Of a stretch of 16,000 bases of DNA, positions 703 to 16,000 are shown piece after piece. The notes beneath the pieces were generated by a model. It made no database searches and was not told the DNA's origin. It was given only the letters and a program-made list of their open reading frames with translations. Source of the DNA: a bacterium (lineage in GTDB: Bacteria; Planctomycetota; UBA1135; GCA-002686595); contig JAUHYB010000029.1 of NCBI GenBank assembly GCA_030426745.1, forward strand, positions 3,950-19,949, given 5' to 3'. The position numbers and the translations under genes are program-made. Positions within the stretch are counted from its first letter, which is position 1, and each line of letters opens with the position of its first letter.

Positions 703-2648
703 GTCGTGGAGGTCCCGTGCAGCGCACCGGGTGCGCCGCGGTGTTCCGGATCGCCCGGGAGGCCGACCAGGCCGGCTTGCTCGAGCGCGGTGAGCGCGGC
801 GCCGATGCCCGGCGCGCGCGCTTCGAGGTCCGCGAGCGACGGCGCGCCGCGGAGCAGGTCGAGGACGCGCGCGACGTCGCCGCCGACGCGTTGCGTGCGC
901 ACGCCGGTCGCGGTCGCGCGCACGAAGAGGAAGGTCTCGCGCTCGATGGCGCGCGGCGCGTCGCGCCCCGCCTCGATCATCGCCGGCACGTCGTGGCGCA
1001 GCGCGACGACTTCGCCGAGGGCGACGGGCGCGTCCTTCGCGGTGACGACGCCGCGCGCGGCCGCTCGCACGAGCGCCTGTTCCCAGCGCAGCGCGTCGGC
1101 GACGATCGCCGATTCGTCCGCCGCGCCGCCGGCGCGCGCGACGTCCCTCGCGGCATTCCCCGCGAAGCCCGCGAACCCGCGCCCGCTCGCCCGCCACGCG
1201 CGCGCCAGCTGCAGGGAATCGTCGCCGGTCGCGCGCCGCAAGAGCGACCACGTGCGCGGGTAGCGCTGCAACAACTCCGGCAAGTGGTCGCGGTACCACG
1301 CGAGCTCGTCCAGGCGCGCGCCGTCCATCGGCAACAGCGCCCAGCTGGAGAACAGGTCGGGGTGGGCGTCGACGAGCGCGCGCTCGGCCGCCGTGTGTCC
1401 CGCGCCGAGCGCCATGTCCGGCGCGATGCCCGCGCGCGGCCGCGAGTCCGCGCCGAACTCCTCGCCCAGGCCGCAGCCGGGCTGCGGGTTCACCAGGTGG
1501 AAGGACAGGTTCAGCCCCGCGCGCAACGCGGCGTCCGCGGCGAGGTCCAGCGTCTGCGCGAGCTCCGCGTCGCCCTCACCGGGCAGGCCCATGATGAACG
1601 ACAGGATCGGCGTGATGCCGACGCGCGCGCAGGCGTCGACGACCTCCAGGACCGGCGCGTCCGCGGCCATGCGCTTCTCGCAGCGCGCGCGCACCTCCGG
1701 CGACGCGGACTCGACGCCGAGCAGCACCCGGTAACACCCCGCGGCGGCCATGCGGTCGAGCAGCGCGGCGTCCAGGTGGTCGACGCGCGCGCGACACTCC
1801 CACGGCACGCCGGCGCCGCGCGCGATCATCCCGTCGCAGAACGCCAGCGCGTGCGCGCGGTCGGCGCCGAAGATGTCGTGGCACAGGTAGACGTTGCGGG
1901 CGGCGGGCAGCGCGGCGGCCTCGTGCACCTCGTCGACCAGCCGCGCGGCCGGCACGACGCGCGACCGCCGGTTCCAGTAGCGGCCGATCGTGCAGAAGGA
2001 GCAGTCGTAGACGCACCCGCGGCCCGAGTCGACCGGCACCAGGCCGTCGGACTCGCCGGTGATGCGCTTGTACGCGGCGAGCGGGGGCAACAGGTGCCAC
2101 GCGGGGCGCGGCAGTTCCGCGAGGTCGCGGATCGGCGCGCGGTCGGGCTCGCGCACGACCGTTCCGTCCGCGGCGCGGCGCGTCACGCCGTCGACGCGCG
2201 CGTCGTCGCCGGCGGTCCAGCGCGCGAGCAGCTCGGGCAACGCGCGCTCCGCCTCGCCGCGCAGCACCAGGTCGACCGCGTCGAAGCGTTCCAGCAGCGC
2301 GACGTCGACCCCGGTCGTCCCCGGCCCGCCCAGGAGGTGCCGCGCCGTCGAGCCCAGCGCGCGCAGCTCCGCCAGGATCGCCAGCGCGACGGGCAGGGTC
2401 GCGCCCATCACCGACAGCCCGACGACGTCCGCGCCGCGCGCGAACAGGCGTTCCGCCGCGGCGCGCGCCAGGCCGTCTCCGGCGGGCAGCTCGCCGGCCG
2501 CCAGGGCGTACGCCAGGTCGTCCAGGGCGACCGCGTACCCCGCGCCCTCGACCGCCGCGCCGAGGCGCAACAAGCCCGGCGGCGGCATCGAGTACCCGAA
2601 GGTGTCCGCGTGGGGGGCGTAGGCGAGGAGCGTGCGCACGCGCGCCAT
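699..2648 (-). CDS. B12-binding-domain radical SAM protein (649 aa) with an extended C-terminal region
   Basis: This is part of track ORF 699..3137. I place the start at ATG 2648..2646 (MARVRTLLAYAPHADTFGYSMPPPGLLRLGAAVEGAGYAVALDD...). The 163 upstream codons are Ser/Pro/Arg-rich and overlap the divergent lipoprotein gene. The radical SAM cluster motif GRGCVYDCSFC (CxxxCxxC) follows an N-terminal B12-binding-like domain (VGLSVMGATLPVALAILAELRALG...LLGGPG). No C-terminal Cys cluster is present, so it is not SPASM/twitch type. Confidence 0.9.
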   Translation of the reverse strand: MARVRTLLAYAPHADTFGYSMPPPGLLRLGAAVEGAGYAVALDDLAYALAAGELPAGDGLARAAAERLFARGADVVGLSVMGATLPVALAILAELRALGSTARHLLGGPGTTGVDVALLERFDAVDLVLRGEAERALPELLARWTAGDDARVDGVTRRAADGTVVREPDRAPIRDLAELPRPAWHLLPPLAAYKRITGESDGLVPVDSGRGCVYDCSFCTIGRYWNRRSRVVPAARLVDEVHEAAALPAARNVYLCHDIFGADRAHALAFCDGMIARGAGVPWECRARVDHLDAALLDRMAAAGCYRVLLGVESASPEVRARCEKRMAADAPVLEVVDACARVGITPILSFIMGLPGEGDAELAQTLDLAADAALRAGLNLSFHLVNPQPGCGLGEEFGADSRPRAGIAPDMALGAGHTAAERALVDAHPDLFSSWALLPMDGARLDELAWYRDHLPELLQRYPRTWSLLRRATGDDSLQLARAWRASGRGFAGFAGNAARDVARAGGAADESAIVADALRWEQALVRAAARGVVTAKDAPVALGEVVALRHDVPAMIEAGRDAPRAIERETFLFVRATATGVRTQRVGGDVARVLDLLRGAPSLADLEARAPGIGAALTALEQAGLVGLPGDPEHRGAPGALHGTSTT

Positions 2649-2751
2649 GATCCGCGCGGGGGCGGGCCTTTTCCAGCCTCTGACGTCACCGCTTCGGCGG
2701 CTCGGGTAGAGTGTCCGCCCCATCGACCTTCCCGGCCCGTTCCTACAAGCG

Positions 2752-4665
2752 ATGACCCCTCTCTCCCGCCCCGCGCGCGCCGCGCGCATCGCCCCGCTGT
2801 TCCTGCTCCTCGCCGCGTGCGGCGGCTCCGACGACGACAGCGGCGAGAACAACCAGCTCACCGTTCGGATCTCCACGCTGTCCGTCGCCGGCGGCGTCCC
2901 GAGCGACTTCGGCGGCGTCTGGGCCGCCTTCCTCGCCGACGAGGCGACGTCCGGCGCCGGCGGCATGGACCTGAACGGCGACGGCGACGTGATCGACAGC
3001 GTCGCGCAGCAGCTGAACCTGCAGACGGGCGTCGAGGCGAACGTCGGCGTGGCCGCGCGCGACTTCCGCTGGCTGGGCGACCGCCTGTACCTGGTCGTCG
3101 ACGAGGCGGCGGACGGCGTCGACTGGGACGGCGACACGATGATGGACGACCGCGTGCTGCTCGAGCACGACCCGACGTCGATGGCGGTGCCGACCTACCT
3201 GGCGACGCTGCCCATGGACACGGGCGCGGACATCCTGCGCACCGACGAGTGGATCTTCGTGCGCCAGCGCGACCCCGCGGTGATGGCGAACACGAGCTGG
3301 GTCTGGGGCCTGCACGAGTCCCTGCCCACGACGCTGCACCAGGTGATGACGAACGACGCCGCGGGCGGGCTGCAGCCGCGCCTCCTGGCCGCGCACGACG
3401 ACCTGGTGTTCCTCGAGCTGGACGAGACCGTCGAGGGCCGCGACCTGAACGGCGACGCGGACTCGACCGACACGAGCGTGCTGGCGCTGCTCGACGGCCG
3501 CGGCATGGTCGTGATGGGCGGTTACGAGCTGCCGCTGCGCAACACCTCGCGCGCGATGCCCGCGAACGCCGTGGTCGCCGCGCTGTCGACCGGCATGCAC
3601 GACTGGCAGGTCGGCTTCCCCGTGGACGAGACGGGCCAGGGCGCGGTGAACCTGAACAACCCGCTCAGCGGCGCCGCGATGCTGCCGGGCTCCTGGGAGC
3701 CGACGCAGTGCACCGGCTTCACCGACAACGACACGGTCGACCAGGTGCTCAGCGTCATCGCCTTCCGCGCCTGGGACGACGACCCGGTGACGAATCCGCC
3801 GGTGAACACCGGCCTCGTCACGACGGACCGCATCGTCATGGTGCCGGGGTACGTCGGCGTGATCTCCGACGAGTCGGACCACGGTACCTGCGACCTGAAC
3901 GGCGACGGCGACACCGACGACGAGGTGTTCCGCTGGACGTCGGTCACCCAGCCGATCCTGCCGCCCAGCGCCGTGTCGTCGATGTTCGCGGTCTCGCGCT
4001 TGAGCGGCGGGTTGCAGGGCGTGGGAACGCTCGACGACGCCTTCGTGATGGCCGTCAGCGAGGCCGACGACCGCCGCGACCTGAACGACGACGGCTTCCA
4101 GGACCTGTCGGTCGTGCAGTGGCTCGACCCGTCGGCGGGCGTGACGTGGACGAACGACCACGGCGCGTCGCAGCCGTCGTACGCGGCGGCCAGCTGGATG
4201 GGGCCGTCGTCCGACGGCACGCGTCTGGGCGTCGCCTACGACGAGCTGTCGAACGGCGTCGACCTGAACAACGACGGCGACCAGCTGGACTCGATGCCGA
4301 CCTTCGCGCAGTTCACCGGCGCGCCGGTGCGCATGGCCTTCCCCGGCTACACGGCCGCGGTGCAGAAGACCAACGCCGGCATCGTCTTCCAGAACGGCTG
4401 GGCCTTCTACCGCATCAGCGAGGCCGAGGACGACCGCGATTGGAACGGCGACGGCGCCTCGAACGAGTTCGTGATGCTGCGCAGCCGCATCGCCGACGGC
4501 CTGTCGCAGTTCATCGTCACCCTGAACTCGCTGCCGATCCCGGCCGTGCGCCCGGACCTGATCACCGGCGCGGCCGGCGGCGTGTTCCTGGTCGACGAGA
4601 TGATGGCCGGCGACGTGAACGGCGACGGCGTGATCTCGTTCGCGCTGGTCTATTACGCGATCTAG
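2752..4665 (+). CDS. Secreted lipoprotein with repeated DxNGDG calcium-loop units (FG-GAP/integrin-like beta-propeller candidate), 637 aa
   Basis: ATG at 2752. The signal peptide has a lipobox: MTPLSRPARAARIAPLFLLLAAC(23)GGSDDD. Codon third positions are strongly G/C. There are eight clear DxNxDG motifs plus one degenerate copy (see the repeat feature). The antisense 676-aa ORF is Arg/Ala/Gly-rich and is rejected. Confidence 0.85.
   Translation: MTPLSRPARAARIAPLFLLLAACGGSDDDSGENNQLTVRISTLSVAGGVPSDFGGVWAAFLADEATSGAGGMDLNGDGDVIDSVAQQLNLQTGVEANVGVAARDFRWLGDRLYLVVDEAADGVDWDGDTMMDDRVLLEHDPTSMAVPTYLATLPMDTGADILRTDEWIFVRQRDPAVMANTSWVWGLHESLPTTLHQVMTNDAAGGLQPRLLAAHDDLVFLELDETVEGRDLNGDADSTDTSVLALLDGRGMVVMGGYELPLRNTSRAMPANAVVAALSTGMHDWQVGFPVDETGQGAVNLNNPLSGAAMLPGSWEPTQCTGFTDNDTVDQVLSVIAFRAWDDDPVTNPPVNTGLVTTDRIVMVPGYVGVISDESDHGTCDLNGDGDTDDEVFRWTSVTQPILPPSAVSSMFAVSRLSGGLQGVGTLDDAFVMAVSEADDRRDLNDDGFQDLSVVQWLDPSAGVTWTNDHGASQPSYAAASWMGPSSDGTRLGVAYDELSNGVDLNNDGDQLDSMPTFAQFTGAPVRMAFPGYTAAVQKTNAGIVFQNGWAFYRISEAEDDRDWNGDGASNEFVMLRSRIADGLSQFIVTLNSLPIPAVRPDLITGAAGGVFLVDEMMAGDVNGDGVISFALVYYAI
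2968..4641 (+). repeat. Intragenic coding repeat: units of hydrophobic strand, [D/S]E, 4-8 aa, D-[LWV]-N/D-x-D-G-x-x-x-[D/E]
   Basis: Motif D codons are at 2968 (DLNGDGD), 3121 (DWDGDTM), 3442 (DLNGDAD), 3892 (DLNGDGD), 4078 (DLNDDGF), 4261 (DLNNDGD), 4438 (DWNGDGA) and 4612 (DVNGDGV). A degenerate copy sits near aa 299 (VNLNNPLSG). Each is preceded by a DE/SE element: ADEATSGAGGMD, VDEAADGVD, LDETVEGRD, SDESDHGTCD, SEADDRRD, YDELSNGVD, SEAEDDRD, VDEMMAGD. At the DNA level the string gacctgaacggcgacggcgac recurs with variation. Confidence 0.8.
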
Positions 4666-4839: not shown

Positions 4840-6204
4840 ATGGAAGCACTCGACGTCCACCGGCTGCAGTTCGCGTTCACGATCACGTACCACTACCTGT
4901 TCCCGCAGATCACGATGGGGCTGGCGCTGCTGCTCGTCGTGTTCAAGGCGCGGGAGCTGCGCGGCGACGAGGCGTCGGGACGCGCGCTGCGCTTCTGGGC
5001 GAAGGTCTTCGGCGTCTGCTTCGCGATGGGCGTCGTCACCGGCATCCCGATGGAGTTCCAGTTCGGCACGAACTGGGCGCGCTTCTCCGAGCGCACCGGC
5101 AACGTGATCGGCCAGACGCTCGCGATGGAGGGCGTCTTCGCCTTCTTCCTCGAGGCGAGCTTCCTGTACTTCCTGCTGTACGGCGAGAAGCTCGTCGGCC
5201 CGCGCGGCCACCTCGCGGCGGCGGTGCTGGTGTGGCTCGGCAGCTGGCTGTCGGGCTACTTCATCGTCTGCACGAACGCCTGGATGCAGCACCCGGTCGG
5301 CTACACGCTGGGCGACGACGGCGTGATCCAGCTCGAGTCGATCGGCGCGCTGCTCACGAACCCCTGGGCCGTACGGCAATACGTGCACACGATGATCGGA
5401 TCGGTGATCACCGCGTCCTTCGTGCTGGCGGGCGTCGGCGCGTTCTGGCTGCTGCGCGGCGTGCACCAGGCCGTCGCGCGCCGTTCGGTGGCGCTGGGCG
5501 TGCTCGTCGGCTTCGTCGCGTCGGTCGTCGCGGCCTTCCCGACGGGCTCGATGCAGGCGCACATGGTCAGCGAGCACCAGCCCGCGACTTTCGCCGCGAT
5601 GGAGGGCCACTTCCACACCGAGGACCGCGCCGCGATGGTGCTGATCGGCCAGCCGAACATGGAGACGCTGACGCTGGACAACCCGATCCGCATCCCCGGC
5701 ATGCTGTCGTTCCTGACCTTCCAGCGCTGGGACGCGGAGGTGCCGGGCCTCACCGAGTACCCGCGCGACGAGTGGCCGGACAACGTGCCGCTCCTGTACT
5801 TCAGCTACCACATCATGGCGGGGCTCGGGACGCTGTTCATCGCGCTCACCGCGCTCGCCGGGATCGCGTGGAAGCGCGGGCGCCTCTACGGCGCGCGGCC
5901 GATCCTGTGGGCGCTGCTGGTCGCCGTGCCGTTCCCCTTCATCGCGAACACCGCGGGCTGGATGACGGCCGAGCTCGGTCGGCAACCGTGGATCGTGCAC
6001 GGCCTGCTGCGCACCGAGGACGGGCACTCGCTGAACGTCTCGGCGGGCAACGTGTGGTTCAGCCTGCTGGGCTTCGCGGGTCTGTACAGCCTGCTGTCGG
6101 CGCTGTTCGTCGCGCTGATGCTGCGCCTCATCGGTCGCGGTCCGGCGCCGGATCCGCGCGAGGACGATGCGGCGGAGCTCGCCGCGCGGTCGGAGGTCGC
6201 CTGA
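4840..6204 (+). CDS. cydA: Cytochrome bd-type quinol oxidase subunit I (short Q-loop form, 454 aa)
   Basis: The N-terminus HRLQFAFTITYHYLFPQITMG matches the CydA heme b595 His region (E. coli RLQFALTAMYHFLF). The signature GWMTAELGRQPWIVHGLLRTEDG (GRQPW) is present, with multiple TM helices. The length of 454 aa fits short Q-loop CydA. Confidence 0.95.
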   Translation: MEALDVHRLQFAFTITYHYLFPQITMGLALLLVVFKARELRGDEASGRALRFWAKVFGVCFAMGVVTGIPMEFQFGTNWARFSERTGNVIGQTLAMEGVFAFFLEASFLYFLLYGEKLVGPRGHLAAAVLVWLGSWLSGYFIVCTNAWMQHPVGYTLGDDGVIQLESIGALLTNPWAVRQYVHTMIGSVITASFVLAGVGAFWLLRGVHQAVARRSVALGVLVGFVASVVAAFPTGSMQAHMVSEHQPATFAAMEGHFHTEDRAAMVLIGQPNMETLTLDNPIRIPGMLSFLTFQRWDAEVPGLTEYPRDEWPDNVPLLYFSYHIMAGLGTLFIALTALAGIAWKRGRLYGARPILWALLVAVPFPFIANTAGWMTAELGRQPWIVHGLLRTEDGHSLNVSAGNVWFSLLGFAGLYSLLSALFVALMLRLIGRGPAPDPREDDAAELAARSEVA

Positions 6205-7220
6205 TGCTCGCCGAGACCTGGTTCTGGCTGCTCGCGCTCTCGCTCGCGACCTACGTCGCGCTGGGCGGCGCGGACCTGGGCGTCGGCATGCTGCTGTCGC
6301 GCGTCGCGAAGACGCCCGACGAGCGCCGCGCCGTGATCGACACGATCCGCCCGCTGTGGAAGCCGAACGAGGTGTGGCTGGTCGCCGCCGGCGGCACGCT
6401 CTTCCTCGCGTTCCCGACGCTGCTCGCCGTCGCGTTCAGCGGCTTCTACCTGCCGCTGATGCTCGTGCTGTGGTTGATCGTCGGGCGCGGCCTGGCGATC
6501 GAGTTGCGGTACCAGATGGACGAGCCCCTGTGGAACGGCATGTGGGACGTCGTGCTCGGGCTGGCGAGCCTGGCGCTGGCCGTGTGCTTCGGCGCGGCGC
6601 TCGGCAACATCCTGCGCGGCGTCGCGCTGGACGAGACGGGCACCTTCTTCGCGCCGCTGTGGACCGACCTGACGATCGGCGACGAGCCCGGCATCCTCGA
6701 CTGGTACACGCTGCTCGTCGCGACGGTCGCCGCGCTCGCGCTGGCGCACCACGGCGCGCTCTACCTCTCCGGTCGCACGCAAGGCGACGTGCGCGAGCGC
6801 GCCGCCGGCTGGGCCGCGCGCCTCTTCCCGCCGCTCTTCATCGGCTGGATCGCGCTCGGCGGGCTCTCCTTCGAGGCGCGCCCCGCCGTCCTCGACAACC
6901 TCCGCGCGCACGCGTGGGGCATCGTCTTCCCCGCCCTCGCCGTCGCCGCCTTCGTCGCGAGCGCCCTCCTGCGCCGCCCGCACCCGCGCCGCGCCTTCCT
7001 CGCGAGCACCGCCGCCCTCTACGCCAGCGTCCTCACGGCCGCCGTCTCCACCTTCCCCGACGTCCTGCCCGCCCGCGACGCCGCGCACTCGCTGACCCTG
7101 GCCGAAGCGGCCGCCCCCGACGCGGGCCTGGCGACGGGGCTCACCTGGTGGCTGCCCGGGATGGCGCTCGTCGTCGCGTACTACGCGTGGATGCACCGGC
7201 GGATCGGCGGCGGACGGTAG
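6204..7220 (+). CDS. cydB: Cytochrome bd-type quinol oxidase subunit II (338 aa)
   Basis: This is the last 338 codons of the artefactual 2167-aa track ORF 717..7220. ATG 6204 overlaps the cydA TGA (TGATG), and GGAGG lies at 6192..6196. MLAETWFWLLALSLATYVALGGADLGVGMLL...TIRPLWKPNEVWLVAAGGTLFLAFP...AFSGFYLPLMLVL aligns by eye with E. coli CydB (DGFDMGVGML...[24 protein letters not shown]...AFSGFY). Confidence 0.93.
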   Translation: MLAETWFWLLALSLATYVALGGADLGVGMLLSRVAKTPDERRAVIDTIRPLWKPNEVWLVAAGGTLFLAFPTLLAVAFSGFYLPLMLVLWLIVGRGLAIELRYQMDEPLWNGMWDVVLGLASLALAVCFGAALGNILRGVALDETGTFFAPLWTDLTIGDEPGILDWYTLLVATVAALALAHHGALYLSGRTQGDVRERAAGWAARLFPPLFIGWIALGGLSFEARPAVLDNLRAHAWGIVFPALAVAAFVASALLRRPHPRRAFLASTAALYASVLTAAVSTFPDVLPARDAAHSLTLAEAAAPDAGLATGLTWWLPGMALVVAYYAWMHRRIGGGR

Positions 7221-7260
7221 GATCGCGTGACCGCCGGGCCCGCCGGGTCTAGCGGCCCGC

Positions 7261-9192
7261 ATGCTCGCGTTCCTCGTTCTCACCGCGCTCGGGATTCACG
7301 GGGCGCCTACGCGCCTCGCGCAGTCGTCGGCGATCGTCGACGCCGGGATCGAAGTCGAGACCGACGCCGACAGCAGCACGCCGACGGCGCTGCACGTCCG
7401 CATCCTGGAGAGTCCCGTGAACGCCGTCCCGATGGGCGGCGCGTTCGTCTGGTCGTACGCGAGCCTGCGCGGCGCGTCGGGCGGTTCGGCGCTCGCGGTC
7501 GACCTCGGCACGCACCGCGCGCAGGCGGACGGGACCGTGCGGATCGACCTCGCGCCGCTGTCGGACGTCCCGCCGCTCGACCGGGCGGTCTGTCAGGTGC
7601 GCGTCGCCGCCTACCGGGACGGAGTCTTCGCGGAGAAGTGGTTCACCTTCGACGAGTTGCTCGCGGAACCGCGCGCGCGCGGCAGCGCGGTCTTCGGCAG
7701 GACACCCGATCGCGGCGAGCCCTTCCGCGTCGGCCGCGTCGTCAACGAGTCCGGTCGGCCCGTGGAAGGTGTCGAAGTGGTGCGCGTCGGACGGGACGCG
7801 GCCACCGGTGCCTGGGACGAGCGCGACGGTTGTTGCGGAGGACGGAGCGATGCGCTCGGCTACTTCGTCGCGCGCGTTCCCGAGGGCGACGCTGAGTGCC
7901 TCGCGGTCGTCGATCCGGTCCACGGCACGGGGTGGGTCGCCGCCTCGCCGAACGTGTCGTCGTCGACGATCGTCTTGCGACGCACCGGCGCCGAGACCAC
8001 GGGGCGCATCGTCGACGCGGCGGGGGATGGCGTGCCGTTCGCGAGGTTCGTGATCGTTGGTGTCGCGGAAGAGTCGGACGGCGCCGACGCGTTCGGACGG
8101 CGATCGGTCGGCGACGGCGTCGCGCACTTCCTCGATGAATACGAGCTGATCGCCGACGAGCGCGGCGCGTTCCGCCTGTTCCTGCCCGCGGGCAGCAGCT
8201 GGTGGATTCTCTCTGAGGGGCACGAGGATGCGGGGAGCGCGGACCCGCTGATCGTCCGCGCGGGAACCGCCGACTCGACGGTGTCGTTCGGCGCGACGCG
8301 CGTGCGCGTCCGGCTGCGTGACGAAGCGGGGCGACACTTGAATGGAGTCACGCCGCGGCTCCACCGGTTGGGTCTCGACGCGCGCGCGCTGCCGGGCGAC
8401 GCGCGGGCCGTCGTCTCGCGGGGCATGGGGACCACGCCGACTTCCGATCCCGACGGCGGGTGGAGCCTGGTGCTCGAGGACGACGCGCCCCTGCAGATCG
8501 CCGTGTGGCGCGAGTCCGGCGACCGGTGGTTCGTCGGCAGCGTCGTCGTCCGCCCGCGCATCGGCCGCACGACCGACGCGACGGTCGTCGTGCGCGACGT
8601 CGCGCGCGCGCAACCGCTCGACCTCATGTTCGTCGACGCCGACGGTCGCGCCGTCTCGGACTGGACGGCCCGCCTGCTCGACGCGGAGACGGAGCGGATG
8701 CTGATCACCTTCGACGCGGACGGCGTGGTGCACGCGACGTGCTTCGGCCTGGTCGGCTACGGCGATCCGCGGCTGCCGGTCGGCGCGTACCGCGTCGCGA
8801 TCGAGGCGGAGCCGACCTCGTTCGTGTTGCCCGCGACGGCGGACGTCCACGCGAGCGCGACGGAACGGACGCTACGCTCGTTGCGCTCGCCCGGCTTCGG
8901 CGGTCGCCTGCTCGCGAGCGCGGACTCCGCCGGATGGGACGGCATCGCGGAGCCCGCGCCGATCCTGGAGCTCGTCCCCGGCGACGGCGTCGACGGCGGG
9001 GCGCGCGCCGTTCGCTGGACGAGGCGGGCGAACGGCGGCGGCACGTCGGCATCGATGATCGCCGACGCCCTCCTCGAACCCGGCACCTGGTCGTACACCC
9101 TCCGCGCGCCGGACGGCGCGGCGCTCGCGGCGGGCACGGTCGAGATCCGGGCGCGCGCGGAGACGGTCCTGGCGGTCGAGATCGAGCGGTAG
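7261..9192 (+). CDS. Secreted multi-domain protein with carboxypeptidase-regulatory-like (prealbumin-fold) repeats, 643 aa
   Basis: ATG 7261 is the first start after an in-frame TGA at 7228. The N-terminus is hydrophobic (MLAFLVLTALGIHGAPTRLAQSSA) but has no basic n-region, so the signal peptide call is tentative. Recurrent modules resemble CarboxypepD_reg-type beta-sandwiches: GRVVNESGRPVEGVEVV...SDALGYFVARVPEG; GRIVDAAGDGVPFARFVI...ADERGAFRLFLPAG; VRLRDEAGRHLNGV...SDPDGGWSLVLE; LMFVDADGRAVSDW...PVGAYRVAIEA. Amino-acid composition is balanced and GC3 is high, unlike the antisense ORFs. Confidence 0.75.
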   Translation: MLAFLVLTALGIHGAPTRLAQSSAIVDAGIEVETDADSSTPTALHVRILESPVNAVPMGGAFVWSYASLRGASGGSALAVDLGTHRAQADGTVRIDLAPLSDVPPLDRAVCQVRVAAYRDGVFAEKWFTFDELLAEPRARGSAVFGRTPDRGEPFRVGRVVNESGRPVEGVEVVRVGRDAATGAWDERDGCCGGRSDALGYFVARVPEGDAECLAVVDPVHGTGWVAASPNVSSSTIVLRRTGAETTGRIVDAAGDGVPFARFVIVGVAEESDGADAFGRRSVGDGVAHFLDEYELIADERGAFRLFLPAGSSWWILSEGHEDAGSADPLIVRAGTADSTVSFGATRVRVRLRDEAGRHLNGVTPRLHRLGLDARALPGDARAVVSRGMGTTPTSDPDGGWSLVLEDDAPLQIAVWRESGDRWFVGSVVVRPRIGRTTDATVVVRDVARAQPLDLMFVDADGRAVSDWTARLLDAETERMLITFDADGVVHATCFGLVGYGDPRLPVGAYRVAIEAEPTSFVLPATADVHASATERTLRSLRSPGFGGRLLASADSAGWDGIAEPAPILELVPGDGVDGGARAVRWTRRANGGGTSASMIADALLEPGTWSYTLRAPDGAALAAGTVEIRARAETVLAVEIER

Positions 9193-9219
9193 CGGGCGGG
9201 ACGCGGTAGGCTCGGCACC

Positions 9220-11361
9220 ATGAGTTTCCCGCTCTGTCTGCTCGCGTCGATCCTCGCCGTTCTCGGAGTCCCGCGCGGCCTCGCCTTCGCTTCCGTCGAG
9301 ACGTCGACGGCGCACGCTCAGGATGCCGCTGGGGACGAACGCTGTCCGGTCGGCGACGACGCGCCGCAGGACGCCGACGACACGCCGACCGTCGACGACA
9401 CGAACGCCGCCGTCGTGATCCGCGTGCGCGTCGTCGACGTGCGCGGCGGCGAGGTCCCCGGCGGCTGCTACGTGCAGCTGCGGTCGGGCGAGGAGCGCTA
9501 CGGCCGGCGCACGAACGACGCGGGCGAGGTCGCCTTCCCGTTCGCCGAGGCGCCGTACATGCCGCGCATCGAGGTCCTGCCGGGCGACGGCTGGCGCTGG
9601 TTCCGGCGCCCGCCCTACGGCGTCCTCACGCTCGACACGCCGTACGCGAAGGGCGAGGAGACGCTCACTGTCGAGGTCGCGCGGACCGAGACCGGCGTGG
9701 TGCACGGCCTCGTGCTCGACGACGCGACGGGCGAGCCGCTCGCGGGCTATCGCTTCCGGCTGAGTCGTCCGCCGTTCCCGAAGCCCGAGAGCGGCGCGCC
9801 CATGGAGCTCGAGACCGACGCGCTCGGCCGCTTCCACACGCCCCGCGCGATCCCCGGCGGCCGCTGGAACCTGCGCGCGAACAGCGGCGAATCGATGCCG
9901 ATCGACCTGCCCGGCGGCCAGTGGGACTGCCTGGTGCCGACCGAGGAACGCCCCGACCCCGTCGTGTTGCGCGTGCCCGTCGGCGCGACTTACGACCTCG
10001 AGCTCGAGGGGGCGGTGCCGGACGACCCGACGTCGCTGCGCGCGGTGATCGTCGCGGCGCACGGTCGCGACGCGGGTCCGCGTTGGGAGGCGCCGTTGCG
10101 TGTCACGGACGACCGCGTGTGGGTGCGCTTCGCGCCGGAGGCGTTCGCGACCGACGGCGCCGCCTTCCTCGCGGTGGTCGGGGACGGCGGCTTCCTCGCG
10201 GGCACCGCGTCGCTCGGCGTCGGCGCGCCGCGCCGCGACGGAACCGTGACGGTGACACTGGAGCGCACCGGGTCTTATCGGCTGCACGAGGCGCTCGTCG
10301 GGCCGGACGAGGGGCACGGGGACGACCGCGGGCACGGGCTCCGCTACACCGTCGAACCGCTCGATCCCGCGCTGCTGGACGAGACGACGAACTGGCGCAT
10401 CGGCGAGCGCGCGCACCTGCGGCCGGGTCGCTACCGCTGGACGGCGTGGTCGCGCGCGCACGAGCGGCGCACCGTCGAGTTCGAGGTCGTCGCAGGAGAG
10501 ACCTACGAGCCCGAAGAGCCCCTGACGAAGCTGCCGGAAGGTCGAGTCGTGCGCGGCACGATCGAGTGGGCCGACGAGTCCGTGACGTATCGTTGCTGCG
10601 AGCTGCACGTGCGCTGCTCGACGCTGCCGGTCCGCGACTTCGAGATCCAGTACGACAGCTTCGGCTCCTGCGTCAGGTACACCTCGGTCCATTACGCGTC
10701 GAGCCGGGACGCCGACGGGCGCGTCGCCGAGTTCGAGCTGTCGAGCGTTCCGGACGGTCCGCTCGAGGTGTTCGGCGCGGATCATGTGGGGCGCGTCGCG
10801 GTCGTCGAGCGCAGCACGGACGAGGACGGCGCGCTGCGCTTGCGCATCGTCATGACCGATCCCGCCGTCGGCGAGGGGTTCGGCTTCTCCTTCGAGCCCG
10901 ACGCGCTCGCGCCGCCCTACACGAACTGGCCGACCGTGCACACGCGCGATCTCGCGACCGGCGAGGTCCTGCCGACGCACCGCACGCGCGGCGGCGTCAT
11001 CGACCGTCGCCCGGCCGGGTCGCTGGGGCGCGAGTGGGCGCTCACCCGCGACGGCTGCGCGCCGCTCTACTTCACCGCCGCCGCGTTCGTCCCCGACGCC
11101 TCCGGCCGCGCGATCGTGCCCGCGGTCTTCCGGCCCGGCTGGGGCGCGCGCGTCCGCGTCGTCGACGAGGCGGGCACGCCGATCGCCGGCGCCGCGGTGC
11201 TGGTCGACGGTGTTCTTGCGGCGACCAGCGACGCGGAAGGGTGGTGCACGCTCGAGTCGCCTGTCGCGCCGCTGCGCGTCGTCGCGCGACACGGAGCCGT
11301 CGAACGAGGCGTCGCACCCGGCGGCCCGTGGACCGACGTCGTGCTCCCGCGAGGCGAGTGA
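9220..11361 (+). CDS. Secreted multi-domain protein with carboxypeptidase-regulatory-like repeats, 713 aa
   Basis: ATG 9220. The signal peptide is MSFPLCLLASILAVLGVPRGLAFASVETSTAHAQD. Modules include VRVVDVRGGEVPGGCYVQL...TNDAGEVAFPF; VHGLVLDDATGEPLAGYRFRL...TDALGRFHTPRAIPGGRWNLRA; and VRVVDEAGTPIAGAAVLVDG...SDAEGWCTLES. It starts 27 nt after the previous gene on the same strand. Confidence 0.75.
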   Translation: MSFPLCLLASILAVLGVPRGLAFASVETSTAHAQDAAGDERCPVGDDAPQDADDTPTVDDTNAAVVIRVRVVDVRGGEVPGGCYVQLRSGEERYGRRTNDAGEVAFPFAEAPYMPRIEVLPGDGWRWFRRPPYGVLTLDTPYAKGEETLTVEVARTETGVVHGLVLDDATGEPLAGYRFRLSRPPFPKPESGAPMELETDALGRFHTPRAIPGGRWNLRANSGESMPIDLPGGQWDCLVPTEERPDPVVLRVPVGATYDLELEGAVPDDPTSLRAVIVAAHGRDAGPRWEAPLRVTDDRVWVRFAPEAFATDGAAFLAVVGDGGFLAGTASLGVGAPRRDGTVTVTLERTGSYRLHEALVGPDEGHGDDRGHGLRYTVEPLDPALLDETTNWRIGERAHLRPGRYRWTAWSRAHERRTVEFEVVAGETYEPEEPLTKLPEGRVVRGTIEWADESVTYRCCELHVRCSTLPVRDFEIQYDSFGSCVRYTSVHYASSRDADGRVAEFELSSVPDGPLEVFGADHVGRVAVVERSTDEDGALRLRIVMTDPAVGEGFGFSFEPDALAPPYTNWPTVHTRDLATGEVLPTHRTRGGVIDRRPAGSLGREWALTRDGCAPLYFTAAAFVPDASGRAIVPAVFRPGWGARVRVVDEAGTPIAGAAVLVDGVLAATSDAEGWCTLESPVAPLRVVARHGAVERGVAPGGPWTDVVLPRGE

Positions 11362-11392: not shown

Positions 11393-11995
11393 TCAGCGCT
11401 GCGGCTTGGACACGCGGATGTGCAGGTTCAGCGGGACGAAGTGGGGGGCGTAAGCGTCTCGCAGCAGCCCCTCCGCTTCTTCTCTGGTCATCCCGGCGAG
11501 GAACACGCGCCCGATCACAGGGAGCAGCACGGTGCCGTCACTCTCGACATAGGACATCTCGGCCTGCAACTCGTGGTTGTAGTCATCCAGTAGCACGATC
11601 GTGTCGTCCCGTTCGACGACGACCGGCTCCAGCGGCAACGCCTCCCGCGAGGACGTCTCGCTCGACTGCAGCGCCGCGACGACGCGCGCGTTCTCTTGAG
11701 CGCGATAGCCGAACCAGACGACGACGGCGGCGAGCAGGGCGGTCGTGGCGAGGTGGAGTCGTTGCAGCATGAGGGGTCCCTTCAGCTTCTGTCTTCGGCA
11801 GGCGCGCGCGGTGCGTTCGAAGTCGCCGAAGCGCAGGCGCGCGAGTTCGCGGGCGTGTCGCGGAGAGCAACCCTCCGCGATCAGGTGGTCCTCGCAGAGC
11901 GCGAGGTGCGACTCGAGTTCCGCGCGGATGTCGGCGTCGACGGCGCGCGCGTCGGTCTCGGTGGGGTACAGGGTGCTGGCGTCGTCCGTGGTCAT
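11393..11995 (-). CDS. PadR-associated membrane protein: ADOP-type 'permease prefix' helical domain, one TM helix, and a Poly_export-like periplasmic domain (200 aa)
   Basis: The start is placed at ATG 11995..11993, which overlaps the padR TGA (ATGA). The 48 upstream codons of track ORF 11393..12139 are Arg-rich and overlap padR. IRAELESHLALCEDHLIAEGCSPRHARELARLRFGDFERTARACRRQ resembles the N-terminal prefix of acidobacterial ADOP/MacB-like permeases (E.L..HL....D.LIA.G.SP.EAR..A...FG......CR). The TM helix is LQRLHLATTALLAAVVVWFGY. The C-terminus, DDTIVLLDDYNHELQAEMSYVESDGTVLLPVIGRVFLAGMTREEAEGLLRDAYAPHFVPLNLHIRV, resembles the Wza-type Poly_export motif (GD.l.i.v...el...v.v..dG.i.lP.iG.v.vaGlT..e.e..i...l). 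Confidence 0.8.
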   Translation of the reverse strand: MTTDDASTLYPTETDARAVDADIRAELESHLALCEDHLIAEGCSPRHARELARLRFGDFERTARACRRQKLKGPLMLQRLHLATTALLAAVVVWFGYRAQENARVVAALQSSETSSREALPLEPVVVERDDTIVLLDDYNHELQAEMSYVESDGTVLLPVIGRVFLAGMTREEAEGLLRDAYAPHFVPLNLHIRVSKPQR

Positions 11996-12342
11996 GCCTC
12001 GGCCGCCTTTCCTCCGAGCACGGCGCCGACGGCGCGCGTCATGCGCAACCACGACTTGCGCGCGTACGCGAGGCGAGTGCGGCCGTCGTCGGTCAGCGCG
12101 TAGAACTTCGCACGCCGGCCGGTGTCGGACAGGCCCCACTCACTGACGATCCAGCCATTGCGCTCCATGCGGTGCAGCGCCGGGTACAGCGATCCTTCCT
12201 CGACCGACAAGGCCTCGTCGCTGCGCTCGCGGATCGACTGCAGGATCGCGTAGCCGTGCTTGCTGCGACGGGAGAGCGTGCGCAGCACCAGCATCTCCAG
12301 CGCCCCGCGGGGCAGTTCGATGCGCTCGGGTTCGTTCGCCAT
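11992..12342 (-). CDS. padR: PadR family transcriptional regulator (116 aa)
   Basis: The start is placed at ATG 12342..12340. MANEPERIELPRGALEMLVLRTLSRRSKHGYAILQSIRERSDEALSVEEGSLYPALHRMERNGWIVSEWGLSDTGRRAKFYALTDDGR is a canonical PadR winged helix (LE.l.L..L......HGY.i...i.......l.v..GsLYPAL.rLE..G.i...W.......r.k.Y.lT..G). The 59 upstream codons of the track ORF are Arg/Pro/Cys-rich and lie past a promoter-like element. Confidence 0.92.
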   Translation of the reverse strand: MANEPERIELPRGALEMLVLRTLSRRSKHGYAILQSIRERSDEALSVEEGSLYPALHRMERNGWIVSEWGLSDTGRRAKFYALTDDGRTRLAYARKSWLRMTRAVGAVLGGKAAEA

Positions 12343-12596: not shown

Positions 12597-13064
12597 ATGA
12601 AGCTCTCCGTCACCCTGCCCGCCCTCGCCCTCCTCGCGCTGACCGCCGCCGCGCCGGCGTACGTCGCGAACACCGCGAACACCGCCGCGACCGTCGTCGA
12701 CGGTGACGACCACGAAGCGCTGGAGGAGGCGATGGAGACGCTGAAGGCCGGCCAGCGCGCGGTGAAGAAGGGGATGGACGATCCGGCCGCGAACGAGGCC
12801 GAGCTGATGAAGCACCTCGAGGCGATGGAGGCGGCGACGCTGACCGCGATCCCGCTGCACGCCGAGGCGCCCGAGGGGCTCGCCGGCAAGGACCTCGCCC
12901 GCTGGAAGGTCGGGTACCGCGCCGAGCTGACGAAGCTCCTGACGCAGATCCTGGCGATGCAGGACGCGACGCTCGCCGGCGACGCCGCGGCGCTGAAGAA
13001 GGGCTACGACGCGCTCGTCGAGGTCAAGAAGTCCGGGCACGAGGACTTCCGCGTCGACGATTGA
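12597..13064 (+). CDS. Secreted cytochrome b562-like four-helix-bundle protein (155 aa)
   Basis: AAGGA lies 6 nt upstream of ATG 12597. The signal peptide is MKLSVTLPALALLALTAAAPAYVA. The mature region aligns by eye with E. coli soluble cytochrome b562: LEEAMETLKAGQRAVKK vs LEDNMETLNDNLKVIEK (axial Met, here Met46), KDLARWKVGY vs KDFRHGFD, and VKKSGHEDFR vs TTRNAYHQKYR (axial His, here His148). The Met-His spacing is 102 aa, against 95 aa in E. coli. Confidence 0.8.
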   Translation: MKLSVTLPALALLALTAAAPAYVANTANTAATVVDGDDHEALEEAMETLKAGQRAVKKGMDDPAANEAELMKHLEAMEAATLTAIPLHAEAPEGLAGKDLARWKVGYRAELTKLLTQILAMQDATLAGDAAALKKGYDALVEVKKSGHEDFRVDD

Positions 13065-13990
13065 TGTCGGCGCTCTCGATCGCCGTCGCCCTCGTCGCGG
13101 CGAGCGTCGCTCCGGCGTCGCTCGCACCGACGAGCGCTGAGTACACGGTCGCCGACGCCGCGCCGAGCGCGGACCACGCCGCCGCCGCAACGAGCGCGGC
13201 CGTCGCGCCGCTCGTCCAGGACACGGCCGCCGACGCGCCGGACGTCGCCGCGCTGGCGGCCCTGCTCGACGCGCGCTGCGCGTCCTGCCACGCGCCGGGC
13301 GCGGACGAGCCGAAGGCGCTGAAGAAGTGGGCGGCGGCGCGCGACCTGGTCGCGACGGCGGCCGACCCCGAGCTCGTCGTGCCGGGCGACCCGGACGAGT
13401 CGGAGCTGTTCCTGTCCGTCGACTTCGACGACATGCCGCCGCCGGAGTCGGACGTCGAGCCGCTCTCGGACGACGAGAAGGCGCTGATCGCCGCGTGGAT
13501 CCGCGCGGGCGCGACGGTGCCCGAGGCGCAGCGTCCGGCGGAAGGCGAGGCGGCGCCGGCGAAGGCGGGCGCGCGCACGTCCTCGATCGGCGTCTGGATC
13601 GCGCGCTGGCACCCGCTGGTCGTGCACTTCCCGATCGGCCTGCTCGTCGCGGCCTTCGTCGCCGAGCTGCTGCGCCGCGCGCGCCCGGCGTGGCGCACGG
13701 AACACGCCGCCACCTTCTGCTTCGCGCTGGGCGCGCTCGCTACCGTGCCCGCCGCGGGCCTCGGGTGGTGGCTGGCCGAGCACACCGCGCACGACGCGGA
13801 GGCGCTCGACCTGCACCGCTGGCTGGGCGTGGGCCTCGCGGTCGCGTCGATCGTCGCGTGGGGGATCGCCGCGAAGAAGCCGAACTCGCGCCTCGCCTTG
13901 CTCGCGCTCCTCGCCGCGCTCGTCTCCGCGGCCGGCCACACCGGCGGCGTGCTGACCTACGGCGCGGACTGGCTGGCGCTGCCGTTCTGA
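13064..13990 (+). CDS. Membrane c-type cytochrome: signal/anchor, PSCyt1-like CxxCH heme domain, and DUF2231-like 4-TM domain (308 aa)
   Basis: ATG 13064 overlaps the upstream TGA (TGATG); the track starts 3 nt earlier at TTG 13061. CASCH lies at 13277..13291, within LLDARCASCHAPG...LVVPGDPDESELFLSV..DDMPPPESDVEPLSDDEKALIAAWIRAGA. This resembles the planctomycete cytochrome c (PSCyt1) consensus C..CH...vvpG.p..S.l...v....MP.....Ls..e...i..WI..GA. The C-terminal half has 4 predicted TM helices with WHPLVVHFPIGLL and AAGHTGGVLTYG, typical of DUF2231. Confidence 0.85.
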   Translation: MSALSIAVALVAASVAPASLAPTSAEYTVADAAPSADHAAAATSAAVAPLVQDTAADAPDVAALAALLDARCASCHAPGADEPKALKKWAAARDLVATAADPELVVPGDPDESELFLSVDFDDMPPPESDVEPLSDDEKALIAAWIRAGATVPEAQRPAEGEAAPAKAGARTSSIGVWIARWHPLVVHFPIGLLVAAFVAELLRRARPAWRTEHAATFCFALGALATVPAAGLGWWLAEHTAHDAEALDLHRWLGVGLAVASIVAWGIAAKKPNSRLALLALLAALVSAAGHTGGVLTYGADWLALPF

Positions 13991-14031
13991 GCGGTTGCCC
14001 GAAGGTACCCACGGGCAGGCGCGGCGCTCAG
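13987..14031. terminator. Two-tier hairpin between convergent genes whose outer stem includes both stop codons
   Basis: The outer stem pairs CTGAGCG (13987..13993, containing TGA 13988..13990) with CGCTCAG (14025..14031, containing tca 14028..14030). The inner stem pairs TGCCCG (13996..14001) with CGGGCA (14012..14017). There is no U-tract. Confidence 0.3.
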
Positions 14032-14999
14032 CTCACCGCCGCGAACACGAGCGCGCCGACGACGACGAACGCGAGCACGATCGCGACCACCAGCGCCACG
14101 CGCGACCACGAGAACGGGACCGTCCCGGTGATGCCTCGCGCGTCCGATCCGCACACGACGGCGCGGTACAGCTTGTCGTCGTAGCGGTACGCGAAGACCC
14201 ACGCGGGCAGCGCGACGCGGCGCGAGGTGAGTCCTTCTAGCAGGCTCGAGGTGTGCACGTTGCGGAAGCGCGAGCCGGGGATGTGCAGGTCCTCGACGCG
14301 GCGCCGGGTGGCGCGCTCGATCGCGCCGAGGATGACGCGGCGCGCGCCGGAGCGCTGCAGGTCGAAGGTCTCGTGCGCGACCGGCACGTCGCCGGGCGGC
14401 GGCGTCGGTTCGCGCTCGAGGTCCGCGACGGGGTAGAGGTCGCCGAGCGCCGCCACCTCGGACGCCGACAAGCCGCGCGACGCGCTGACGAGCAGGTCGT
14501 CGAAGTGCATGTGCGCCTCGCCCGAGTGCGGCGCCCAGTCCGAACGCCCGGCGCCGAGGTTCGAGTCCGCCGCCCACGTCACGAACGCGCGCGCGTCGCA
14601 GACCCACGCGACCCAGTAGATCGCCTTGATCGACTCGAGCTTCGCGCGGCGCTGCAGGTCGGCGGGGCGGAAGAAGCCCTGGTTGCCCAGCCAGTTCTTC
14701 ACGCGCGCGCGCGCCTCCTCGCGCGTGACGGCGAACGGCAGCCAGCGCTCGGTCTCCTCCGGCGGGTCCGCGCGGTCCTCCAGCCGCATCTCCGAGTCGC
14801 AGAAGCTGCACTTCGGCGCTCCGGCGCGCGCGTCGTACGACACGGCCGCGCCGCAGCTCGTGCAGCGCAGCACCTGCACGGCGACGACGTCGCGCGGGCG
14901 CTCGGTGACCGGCGCCTCGCGGCCGCACACGGCGCAGCGCAGGTCGCCGGCCTCCAGCGGGCTCTCGCAGCGCACGCAGCGCAGGGCGGTCGTCGTCAC
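14028..14999 (-). CDS. Double zinc-ribbon protein with extreme C-terminal TM anchor, unknown function (323 aa); paralog of the upstream gene
   Basis: The start is placed at GTG 14999..14997, overlapping the upstream TGA (GTGA). The other 249 upstream codons of track ORF 14028..15746 are Arg-rich and overlap the upstream gene in another frame. The sequence runs VTTTALRCVRCESPLEAGDLRCAVCG...VLRCTSCGAAVSYDARAGAPKCSFCDS, giving two CxxC...CxxC ribbons. The C-terminal TM helix is WSRVALVVAIVLAFVVVGALVFAAVS. It shares ordered motifs with the upstream protein. Confidence 0.8.
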   Translation of the reverse strand: MTTTALRCVRCESPLEAGDLRCAVCGREAPVTERPRDVVAVQVLRCTSCGAAVSYDARAGAPKCSFCDSEMRLEDRADPPEETERWLPFAVTREEARARVKNWLGNQGFFRPADLQRRAKLESIKAIYWVAWVCDARAFVTWAADSNLGAGRSDWAPHSGEAHMHFDDLLVSASRGLSASEVAALGDLYPVADLEREPTPPPGDVPVAHETFDLQRSGARRVILGAIERATRRRVEDLHIPGSRFRNVHTSSLLEGLTSRRVALPAWVFAYRYDDKLYRAVVCGSDARGITGTVPFSWSRVALVVAIVLAFVVVGALVFAAVS

Positions 15000-16000
15000 G
15001 CGATCACCCCCAGCATCGCGAGGGATCCGAACGCGCCCATGAGCGCGAGCAGGATCAGGCCGAAGACGACCAGGAGCAACCCGACGCCGATCGCGATCTT
15101 GATCGCGGACCGCGGCACCTCGCCCTGCACCTCGCCGGTCTGGCCGTTGATGAGGATGCGCAGCGGCCGGTGGTCCTTGCCGTAGCGCGCGGCGAACACC
15201 CAGATCGGCAGCAGCACCAGGTCGGTGTCCTCGTCGTGGAAGTCGACGTGCAGGCCGGTCAGCTTCGAGGAGTCGCCGGGCAGGAACGCGCGGACGCGGC
15301 GCTCGAGCCACGCGCGCGCTTCCGACTGCGCCGTCGCGTGGCCCTGTTCGCGGTCGAGCGTGGCCTCCTCCGCGACCCAGCCCGAGACGATCGCCGGGTC
15401 GTAGCGGCGCAACGCGCGCAGGTCGAAGGGCTCGATCGACTCCAGCTCCGCGTTGCCGAGGCCGCGCGACGCCGTGACGAGCACGTCGACGACGTAGGCG
15501 GCGTGCGTGCCCGACAGGTCGCGCCACTCGGTCTTCACGACGGTGCGCGTGCGGACGACGGTGCGGCCCTTCGAGTCGGTCGTCGTGTAGGTCTCGGTGA
15601 CCGTGTAGTTCTCGCCGATCCGCGCGTCGTACACCGAGCGCGCCGTCGCGCCGTACAGCCACGCGGGCAGGTAGATGCCCTCGACGCTGCGCACCTCGGC
15701 GTTCTTGAGCTCCGAGGGCGCGAACCACCGGCGCTTGCCGATCCACGCGCGCACGCGGCGGTTCGCCTCCTCGCGGTCGATCAGGAACCCCAGCGCGAAG
15801 TCGGGCGCGTCGCGGCGCGCGCTGTCCGCTCCCGCCGGCCGATCGACGACCGACGGCGACGCGCAGTAGGGGCAGAGCGTCGCGAAGCGGTGCGCCGGCA
15901 TCGTGACCGTCGCGCCGCAGTCCTTGCAGCGGATCTCCAGCGTCGCCTCTTCGGGAGGCGACGCGACGGCGGCGCCGGGGACTTCGCTCGGGGACTCCAT
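14996..16000 (-). CDS. Zinc-ribbon protein with C-terminal hydrophobic anchor, unknown function (at least 334 aa)
   Basis: ATG lies at 16000..15998, exactly at the window edge, so the true start could be further upstream. The zinc ribbon is LEIRCKDCGATVTMPAHRFATLCPYCASP. The soluble domain carries GIYLPAWLY, VLVTASRGL and LLPIWVFAARYG...ILINGQTGEVQGEVP. The C-terminal hydrophobic tail is AIKIAIGVGLLLVVFGLILLALMGAFGSLAMLGVIA. Confidence 0.8.
   Translation of the reverse strand: MESPSEVPGAAVASPPEEATLEIRCKDCGATVTMPAHRFATLCPYCASPSVVDRPAGADSARRDAPDFALGFLIDREEANRRVRAWIGKRRWFAPSELKNAEVRSVEGIYLPAWLYGATARSVYDARIGENYTVTETYTTTDSKGRTVVRTRTVVKTEWRDLSGTHAAYVVDVLVTASRGLGNAELESIEPFDLRALRRYDPAIVSGWVAEEATLDREQGHATAQSEARAWLERRVRAFLPGDSSKLTGLHVDFHDEDTDLVLLPIWVFAARYGKDHRPLRILINGQTGEVQGEVPRSAIKIAIGVGLLLVVFGLILLALMGAFGSLAMLGVIA

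Follow-up and report, generated by a model that had tools for sequence, protein, structure and literature searches.

The right-hand end of a 16,000-nucleotide (nt) stretch of a planctomycete contig (GenBank assembly GCA_030426745.1, contig JAUHYB010000029.1, positions 3,950 to 19,949; G+C ~73%), referred to throughout as the window, carries two minus-strand genes, here named A and B, whose products are almost certainly full-length members of the SamG/YdjG family on the strength of their alignments. The start codon of B lies over the stop codon of A, and third-codon-position G+C (GC3) in gene A reaches 0.97. An earlier account of this DNA, made from its letters alone and called here the sequence-only reading, had described two minus-strand genes overlapping by GTGA at 14996..14999 and had taken their products for paralogs with shared, ordered motifs. 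Both statements were borne out: the overlap is read directly from the sequence, and BLASTP aligns A with B over 310 columns at 29% identity (E 3e-21), with the motifs it had named falling into register, a likeness that as a sequence comparison is well above chance level. A plus-strand gene encoding DUF2231 and cytochrome c domains (13061..13990) converges on gene B, and the transcription unit therefore ends with B. At the other end, a Logan contig with an identical gene B and the same adjoining gene A supplies 104 nt 5' of the A start codon. This segment is non-coding, lacks an in-frame start and contains a hairpin (GAGCC-C-GGCTC, with AAAA and TTT-like runs on its sides; L001:1-104) that could be the terminator of a neighboring gene. 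On these grounds gene A is the first gene of the unit, and the operon does not appear to reach past position 16000. The further operon members that had been expected beyond the window edge are thus not borne out, as the Logan contig is non-coding 5' of A and relatives conserve no gene upstream of it. Scanning positions 13800-16000 for promoters and terminators found neither, with no sigma-70-like promoter in this part of the window.

The family assignment rests on comparison with Bacillus YdjG, the ydjG loci having been recovered from nine Bacillus species by a pattern derived from a published primer. BLASTP aligned A with YdjG over 317 amino acids (aa) at 25% identity (E 1e-28) and B with YdjG over 320 columns that cover both zinc ribbons (E 5e-16), while a profile built from A and B together matched YdjG in hhalign with a probability of 99.9% over 306 aligned columns (E 3.8e-32). 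The ribbon cysteines of A (C25/28/43/46) and those of the second ribbon of B (C46/49/64/67) line up with YdjG C56/59/74/77, and they are kept throughout the A-type, B-type and single-copy subgroups of the family. A layout matching that of A and B has been described by Ravi et al. 2024 (PMC11237479). A profile search (E <= 1e-3) returned 9463 family representatives at 50% identity. Homologs of A number more than 1000 and those of B 555, and their sources are Planctomycetota (Rhodopirellula, Stieleria, Roseiconus and many metagenome-assembled genomes, MAGs), Myxococcota (Cystobacter, Polyangiaceae) and metagenomes; a scan of viral contigs with an alignment of single-copy members found no relatives, and protein A had no match in a look-up of identical sequences.

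The sequence-only reading had considered the function of the pair unassignable and could name no characterized member, a view that is superseded by the homology of both proteins to YdjG/SamG, for which genetics and localization have been published. It had also held that a confident profile match of both proteins to a family with a known role would speak against it, and the matches to YdjG/SamG do so in part. Its comparison with PriA-type ribbons does not stand, the match to Zn_ribbon_PriA (E 0.068, 13.6 bits vs a cutoff of 26) being a generic ribbon match. Membership of PriA-, TFIIB- or RpoP-type families was likewise rejected, all such matches lying below gathering thresholds (RpoP 16 bits vs 72) and covering the ribbon knuckles only. 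Scans of A and B with Pfam, NCBIfam, PADLOC and PHROGs gave sub-threshold zinc-ribbon matches and nothing on the central domain, and in a profile search against PDB sequences RpoP-type ribbons were the only matches. No Pfam model exists for the family core: 39 diverse relatives match ribbon models alone, apart from two weak PepSY matches. In ten long family members the extra parts are low-complexity extensions without Pfam domains.

Both products combine N-terminal zinc ribbons with a core of ~230 aa and a hydrophobic C-terminus (Table 1). The Kyte-Doolittle maximum over 19 residues is 3.05 at residue 302 of A and 3.26 at residue 301 of B; no second hydrophobic segment was found in either protein, all other 19-residue windows scoring <=1.1, and neither has a signal peptide. 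Because the sole hydrophobic segment is C-terminal and a signal peptide is lacking, a tail-anchored topology with the N-terminus inside is the straightforward reading. By alignment, the second ribbon of B is the counterpart of the single ribbon of A. The cysteine positions given by the sequence-only reading for all three ribbons were recovered exactly, as was its hydrophobic segment at the extreme C-terminus of each protein, and the ribbon spacing of N14-15 that it had stated holds for A and for the second ribbon of B (both N14) but not for the first ribbon of B (N10). Positions conserved family-wide, in A numbering and across A-type, B-type and single-copy members, are all four Cys of the ribbon next to the core, three residues of helix 1 (F72, A79 and W86), G164, E211, G242 and P265, and G293, P296 and S298 just before the transmembrane (TM) segment. 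Judged from the alignments, this pattern is structural, not catalytic, which agrees with the earlier statement that no catalytic signature is present: the conserved residues comprise only the four Cys, one Glu and structural Gly, Pro, Trp, Phe, Ala and Ser.

Table 1. Features of the gene pair (window coordinates; ORF, open reading frame; AF2, AlphaFold2 model; KD19, Kyte-Doolittle hydropathy over 19 residues)
Feature	Position	Strand	Basis
Gene A, arm-bearing paralog assigned to the SamG/YdjG family, 334 aa	14996..16000	-	ORF and translation; ATG at 16000, TGA 14996-14998; Zn ribbon, alpha/beta core, C-terminal TM helix
A Cys4 zinc ribbon, C25/C28/C43/C46, CxxC-N14-CxxC	15863..15928	-	Sequence; sub-threshold Pfam Zn-ribbon matches
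A central alpha/beta core, ~residues 66-298	15107..15805	-	AF2; hhalign to YdjG core; covered by no Pfam/NCBIfam model
A Thr-rich beta-hairpin arm, residues 128-160, IGENYTVTETYTTTDSKGRTVVRTRTVVKTEWR	15521..15619	-	Columns invariant, or almost so, among 55 A-type sequences
A C-terminal hydrophobic tail anchor, residues 299-334, after conserved G-x-x-P-x-S	14999..15106	-	KD19; AF2 helix 299-333
GTGA overlap, B start GTG over A stop TGA	14996..14999	-	Read from sequence
Gene B, arm-less paralog assigned to the SamG/YdjG family, 323 aa	14028..14999	-	Translation; GTG 14997-14999, stop TGA; two Zn ribbons, alpha/beta core, C-terminal TM helix
B first, short Zn ribbon, C8/C11/C22/C25, CxxC-N10-CxxC	14925..14978	-	Sequence; B-type consensus CxRCxxPLExGDLRCAICG; Pfam DZR sub-threshold, E 0.0011
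B second Zn ribbon, C46/C49/C64/C67, CxxC-N14-CxxC	14799..14864	-	Aligns with A C25-C46 and YdjG C56-C77
B central alpha/beta core, ~residues 86-297	14109..14744	-	AF2, B-type consensus, alignment; B-specific motif W-x-ADSN-x-G-x-x-RS-x-WAPHSG replaces beta-arm
B C-terminal hydrophobic tail anchor, residues 298-323	14031..14108	-	KD19; AF2 helix 298-322

The best-conserved stretch in A-type proteins is the tip of a long hairpin, I128-R160 (ENYTVTETYTTTDSKG...TRTRT...TEW), referred to as the arm. In the hairpin of A, Thr makes up nearly all of one face, along with Val and Trp, and charged or aromatic residues form the other, so that a membrane-spanning hairpin does not fit. The arm is also found in single-copy members (consensus TETY...G...TRQV..TRW), among them the homolog of a Planctomycetes MAG (L112), and is absent from B. 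What the sequence-only reading had described as an extra beta-rich insert in A is a segment present in most single-copy members and deleted in B; as far as these comparisons reach, the arm is ancestral and was lost by B, which carries its own motif in its place.

AlphaFold2 models of both proteins are confident (A: predicted local distance difference test score 92.5, predicted template modeling score 0.80; B: 90.1 and 0.81, respectively). Their common topology starts with the ribbon(s) and one helix and runs through a very long beta-hairpin and then short helices to a long helix, one long strand accompanied by two short ones and, at the end, the TM helix. In A, the model places helices at 76-89 and 217-239 and long strands at 102-141, 147-176 and 244-273, the first two of which form the hairpin; in B, the hairpin is shorter (120-146 and 156-172), with a further strand at 245-273 and a helix at 216-238. 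Modeling followed by Foldseek searches, a check that the sequence-only reading had itself proposed, gave no significant PDB match for A or B, and PDB matches to TldD, CheX and MHC proteins were set aside as noise. For the A model, significant structural matches came only from a Foldseek search of BFVD, and these are two giant-virus proteins annotated as “DnaJ-like subfamily C member 3” (Yasminevirus A0A5K0UBJ7 and Edafosvirus A0A3G4ZSZ8; E 4e-12 and 1.4e-10, probability 1.00, template modeling score 0.50-0.55 over 252-271 columns). Their identity to A is 16-17%; at the level of predicted models the likeness hints at a possible J-domain-fused form of the A core in Klosneuvirinae. The tail-anchored J-proteins DjlB and DjlC of E. 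coli were rejected as carriers of the same core (hhalign probability 0.5-0.7%, with the TM segment alone aligned).

To describe how consistently the two genes occur together, 84 related loci, among them those found with an A-only alignment, were examined, and their ORFs were classed by separate A-type and B-type hidden Markov models (HMMs); 72 of the loci, in which the sequence continues for more than ~130 nt past A, were informative. A B-type gene lies directly 3' of A on the same strand in 71 of these 72 loci, which answers the earlier proposal to look for co-occurrence of the two paralog types in the neighborhoods of homologs. Fifty of the 71 A-B junctions are 4-nt NTGA overlaps, and most others range from -1 to +12 nt. 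A more divergent pair (L109) also consists of an arm-bearing upstream gene and an arm-less downstream gene with a 4-nt overlap. A metagenomic protein of 487 aa (P0258, L107:3545-5008) joins an A-core without ribbon or TM segment to a B-core with a TM segment and is a possible natural fusion of both partners, of the Rosetta-stone type; neither a separate A gene nor a separate B gene adjoins it. In a neighbor-joining tree the A/B clade forms its own branch, apart from single-copy members linked to SPFH genes, and the upstream gene of L109 and the A-core half of P0258 fall with the A clade, their counterparts with the B clade. The A clade is supported in 89/100 bootstrap replicates and the B clade in 58/100, while the L109 members group together in 0/100 replicates and the P0258 halves in 4/100. 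The divergent pair, the fusion and this grouping indicate one ancient duplication. The sequence-only reading had taken these divergent tandem paralogs to suggest a membrane-tethered heteromer, and the pairing, the overlaps and the one fusion strongly back a coupled, probably heteromeric pair of that kind. Among the papers that could be searched, no description of the A/B pair was found.

The genomic setting of the single-copy homologs, which are ~340-430 aa long and usually have two N14 ribbons, is of a different kind. A gene for a Band_7_1 (PF13421) SPFH protein adjoins them in nine loci from Bacillota, Pseudomonadota, Actinomycetota, Planctomycetota and metagenomes. It lies immediately upstream in eight of the nine (Bacillus, Enterococcus, Paracoccus, Vibrio, Comamonas, Tsukamurella and two metagenomic loci) and two genes upstream in the Planctomycetes MAG (L112:5001-8027). 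The intervening gene in that MAG encodes a 183-aa multi-TM protein without a Pfam match, and the module adjoins divergently oriented murG- and ftsW/rodA-like genes. The Enterococcus locus has a TPM gene downstream as well, and linkage to PspA and TPM genes among single-copy members is confined to Bacillus and Enterococcus. This distribution suggests that SPFH (Band_7_1)-SamG is a conserved core module across phyla and that PspA and the TPM protein look like lineage-specific additions. The C-terminal modules of the Band_7_1 SPFH partners vary: a zinc ribbon occurs in Bacillus, Enterococcus and one further locus (L097), a GYF_2 domain with a Pro-rich tail in another (L098) and in many homologs of the Paracoccus protein (precomputed Pfam), and a helix-turn-helix (HTH) in Comamonas, while GYF_2-type tails in the Paracoccus, Vibrio and Tsukamurella partners were read from their tail sequences. 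The N-terminal N10 ribbon of B, a very short segment, looks similar to the C-terminal ribbon of the SPFH protein YdjI. No SPFH, TPM or PspA gene lies within the window, and BLAST clustering of the neighbors of the pair revealed local synteny within close relatives only.

What is known of the family comes from B. subtilis, where deletion of ydjG or ydjH abolishes the membrane foci of the soluble SPFH protein YdjI and of PspA, where YdjG and YdjH interact in two-hybrid assays, and where mutants show cell-shape defects under alkaline shock (PMC8581546). YdjG and YdjH are thus required to recruit YdjI and PspA to the membrane (PMC8581546; bioRxiv 10.64898/2026.02.06.704340). A 2026 preprint renamed YdjG as SamG and proposed that SamG-SamH is a membrane signaling module restrained by SamI (bioRxiv 10.64898/2026.02.06.704340).

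Against this background we lean toward reading A and B as SamG-family paralogs that probably act, in a SamG-like manner, as a heteromeric adaptor that is tail-anchored, has no enzymatic activity and sits on the cytoplasmic side of the membrane. Judging from the sequence comparisons, it is likely that the two proteins form a heteromer; that the pair has the recruiter role of SamG is a tentative proposal made by analogy. Under such a model, the overlap would couple translation and yield A and B in about equal amounts. Both would enter the cytoplasmic membrane as tail-anchored proteins, leaving ribbons and cores in the cytoplasm, and through those homologous cores they would associate as a heteromer on the inner face of that membrane. 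The ancestral and extremely conserved Thr-rich arm of A would be the probable docking surface for a soluble client, and B, because it has lost the arm and possesses an additional short zinc ribbon, would probably be a modulatory or adaptor subunit. By analogy with SamG, which with SamH recruits SamI and thereby PspA, the pair would serve as a non-enzymatic membrane anchor, scaffold or sensor and may recruit or restrain a soluble membrane-maintenance factor, for example a Band_7_1 SPFH or PspA-family protein encoded elsewhere in the genome.

Several points weigh against this adaptor model. The role is transferred from SamG by analogy; AlphaFold 3 predicts SamG to be monomeric (bioRxiv 10.64898/2026.02.06.704340), and in B. 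subtilis two-hybrid assays it is SamH, not SamG, that contacts PspA and YdjI (PMC8581546). Solo family members exist, one cyanobacterial and one deltaproteobacterial, and among the informative loci a single exception carries a solo A-type gene (L095, 1895-2923). The ribbon of this gene is degenerate (CPYFAS vs CPYCAS, with loss of a Cys) and a convergent 653-aa gene follows it, and it may be a decaying copy. The P0258 fusion is a single metagenomic instance. HMM searches extending up to 8-10 kb on each side found a Band_7_1 SPFH, TPM or PspA gene near the pair in 0 of the 84 loci, and Pfam scans of 83 immediate neighbors of the pair recovered no family more than five times. With those genes missing and no neighbors conserved, the pair is therefore a self-contained two-gene cassette.

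The same absence from all 84 loci, set against the near-universal SPFH linkage of single-copy members, also favors the main alternative, in which the pair, after duplication, would be an autonomous complex that works without SPFH or PspA proteins, self-assembles, possibly into higher-order arrays via its long beta-hairpins, and organizes or senses the membrane in a way unrelated to SamGHI. The separate position of the A/B clade in the tree and the conserved arm, with unusually long strands predicted at high confidence, point the same way, as does the presence in Planctomycetota of an SPFH-linked single-copy homolog, which would make the pair an additional system and not a replacement. However, unlinked partner genes are common in Planctomycetota genomes, and A keeps the arm and the juxtamembrane motifs of SPFH-linked members, suggesting the same partner surface; we regard this autonomous complex as somewhat unlikely. 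It is likewise unlikely that A and B represent an undescribed, self-sufficient, heteromeric SamG branch without an SPFH partner, a tail-anchored scaffold or sensor in which the arm of A would mediate higher-order assembly or capture a new client, and whose core fold would have no solved representative and be shared only with the giant-virus “DnaJ-like” proteins.

The zinc ribbons invite a further explanation, that the pair is a membrane-tethered nucleic-acid-binding protein or transcription regulator whose TFIIB/RpoP/PriA-like ribbons bind DNA, RNA or the transcription machinery and which the tail anchor sequesters. Sub-threshold matches to TFIIB, RpoP/RPC12, PriA-CRR and DZR ribbon models agree with this, Bacillus YdjG passes the Pfam Zn_Ribbon_TF threshold (47.1 bits vs a cutoff of 29), and in a remark by Popp et al. 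2022 (PMC9239133) the ribbon of YdjG “is known to bind DNA”. Zinc ribbons are nevertheless generic modules for protein or nucleic-acid binding, and the frequent occurrence of a zinc ribbon at the end of SPFH partners points to protein-protein use; moreover, A and B lack DNA-binding domains, HTH included, show no basic residues conserved beside the Cys ligands, and have no conserved adjoining sigma factor or regulator, all of which leaves a regulatory function improbable. The highest-ranking Foldseek PDB matches of A, the pore forms of gamma- and alpha-hemolysin, lysenin and aerolysin, would suit a pore-forming or lytic protein whose long amphipathic hairpins insert into membranes like the stems of beta-barrel toxins, but these matches are insignificant (E >= 0.017, probability <= 0.35, template modeling score ~0.1) and disappear for B. 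Neither face of the hairpin is hydrophobic, one being made of Thr and the other charged, a helical tail anchor is present and a signal peptide is not, PADLOC yields only a non-significant LmuB match for B (E 0.5), PHROGs matches are weak and limited to short N-terminal segments, and the viral-contig scan found no relatives, so that pore formation is hardly credible.

SamG/YdjG proteins are among the least understood parts of the bacterial PspA/SPFH membrane-stress machinery, with thousands of distinct members, no Pfam or NCBIfam model of the core and no solved structure. Two groups make up the family: singletons linked to SPFH genes, and an old clade whose paralogs are obligately paired, probably coupled in translation, and have lost that linkage. 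What is new here is this ancient, widespread, coupled pair of an arm-bearing and an arm-less protein, detached from SPFH, PspA and TPM genes; the family itself was already known, if barely characterized. The pair offers a natural experiment that separates the action of the core itself from its action with SPFH and PspA, and the beta-arm, kept in A and deleted in B, is the surface of interest.

Elsewhere in the window, the DUF2231 and cytochrome c membrane protein gene (13061-13990) is overlapped by 4 nt by a cytochrome b562-like gene (12597-13064). Among the closest relatives, too, the b562-like gene converges on the A/B pair (L001, L004/L005 and, as a matching gene, L018), and the DUF2231 gene likewise in the identical Logan contigs (L001-L002), an arrangement that looks like local synteny only. 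Adjacent large ORFs of 643 and 713 aa occupy positions 7261-11361, each with a CarboxypepD_reg-like domain and nothing else recognizable, the match in the first being weak (E 8e-4) and missing the Pfam cutoff; next to them, on the other strand, comes a Poly_export-like gene (11393-12139). Subunit I of a cytochrome bd oxidase is encoded at 4840-6204 (Pfam E 5e-142), and the 361-aa ORF that comes after it and overlaps it (6167-7252) matched nothing in Pfam or NCBIfam, subunit II (CydB) included. On the minus strand, positions 699-3137 hold a B12-binding radical SAM gene, whose best NCBIfam match is the enzyme ApyD of ribosomally synthesized and post-translationally modified peptide pathways at a score far below the cutoff; as called, this gene overlaps by ~385 nt a 637-aa plus-strand ORF (2752-4665) without a family match, and one of the two probably has a wrong start site.

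Among known systems, the resemblance of the pair to SPFH-NfeD systems such as E. coli QmcA-YbbJ is a functional analogy only. In those systems the gene for a small membrane-anchored partner adjoins the SPFH gene, and its product is thought to organize or anchor the SPFH assembly. NfeD differs in carrying an OB-fold domain and in having its TM helices at the N-terminus, and no SPFH gene adjoins the pair here. The idea of an SPFH-anchoring partner is also raised in the discussion of bioRxiv 10.64898/2026.02.06.704340. The core of YdjG has been described as YpeB-related and NTF2-like (PMC11237479), but an NTF2-like or PepSY relationship was not confirmed, as Foldseek returned nothing from the PDB and only 2 of 39 relatives gave weak PepSY matches. 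Relative to the B. subtilis system, two diverged and coupled paralogs stand in place of one gene, B lacks the beta-arm and has a first ribbon of the short N10 type, identity to YdjG is 22-25%, and no pspA, TPM (ydjH/samH) or SPFH (ydjI/samI) gene is nearby. Zinc ribbon(s), an alpha/beta core and one C-terminal TM segment are nonetheless common to A, B and B. subtilis YdjG/SamG, as are the motifs PF-x-[IV]-x-x-x-E-A, a Trp in helix 1, G-[IV]-Y-x-P-x-W, LLP-x-W and NGQTG-x-V-x-G-x-x-P-x-S, and the two-ribbon layout of YdjG recurs in B, whereas A has one ribbon. The SPFH-linked single-copy YdjG homologs are singletons in an operon with an SPFH gene, whereas the A/B clade is never so linked in the 84 loci; both belong to the same family and fold, and A retains the long Thr/Arg-rich arm and the juxtamembrane motif of its SPFH-linked relatives.

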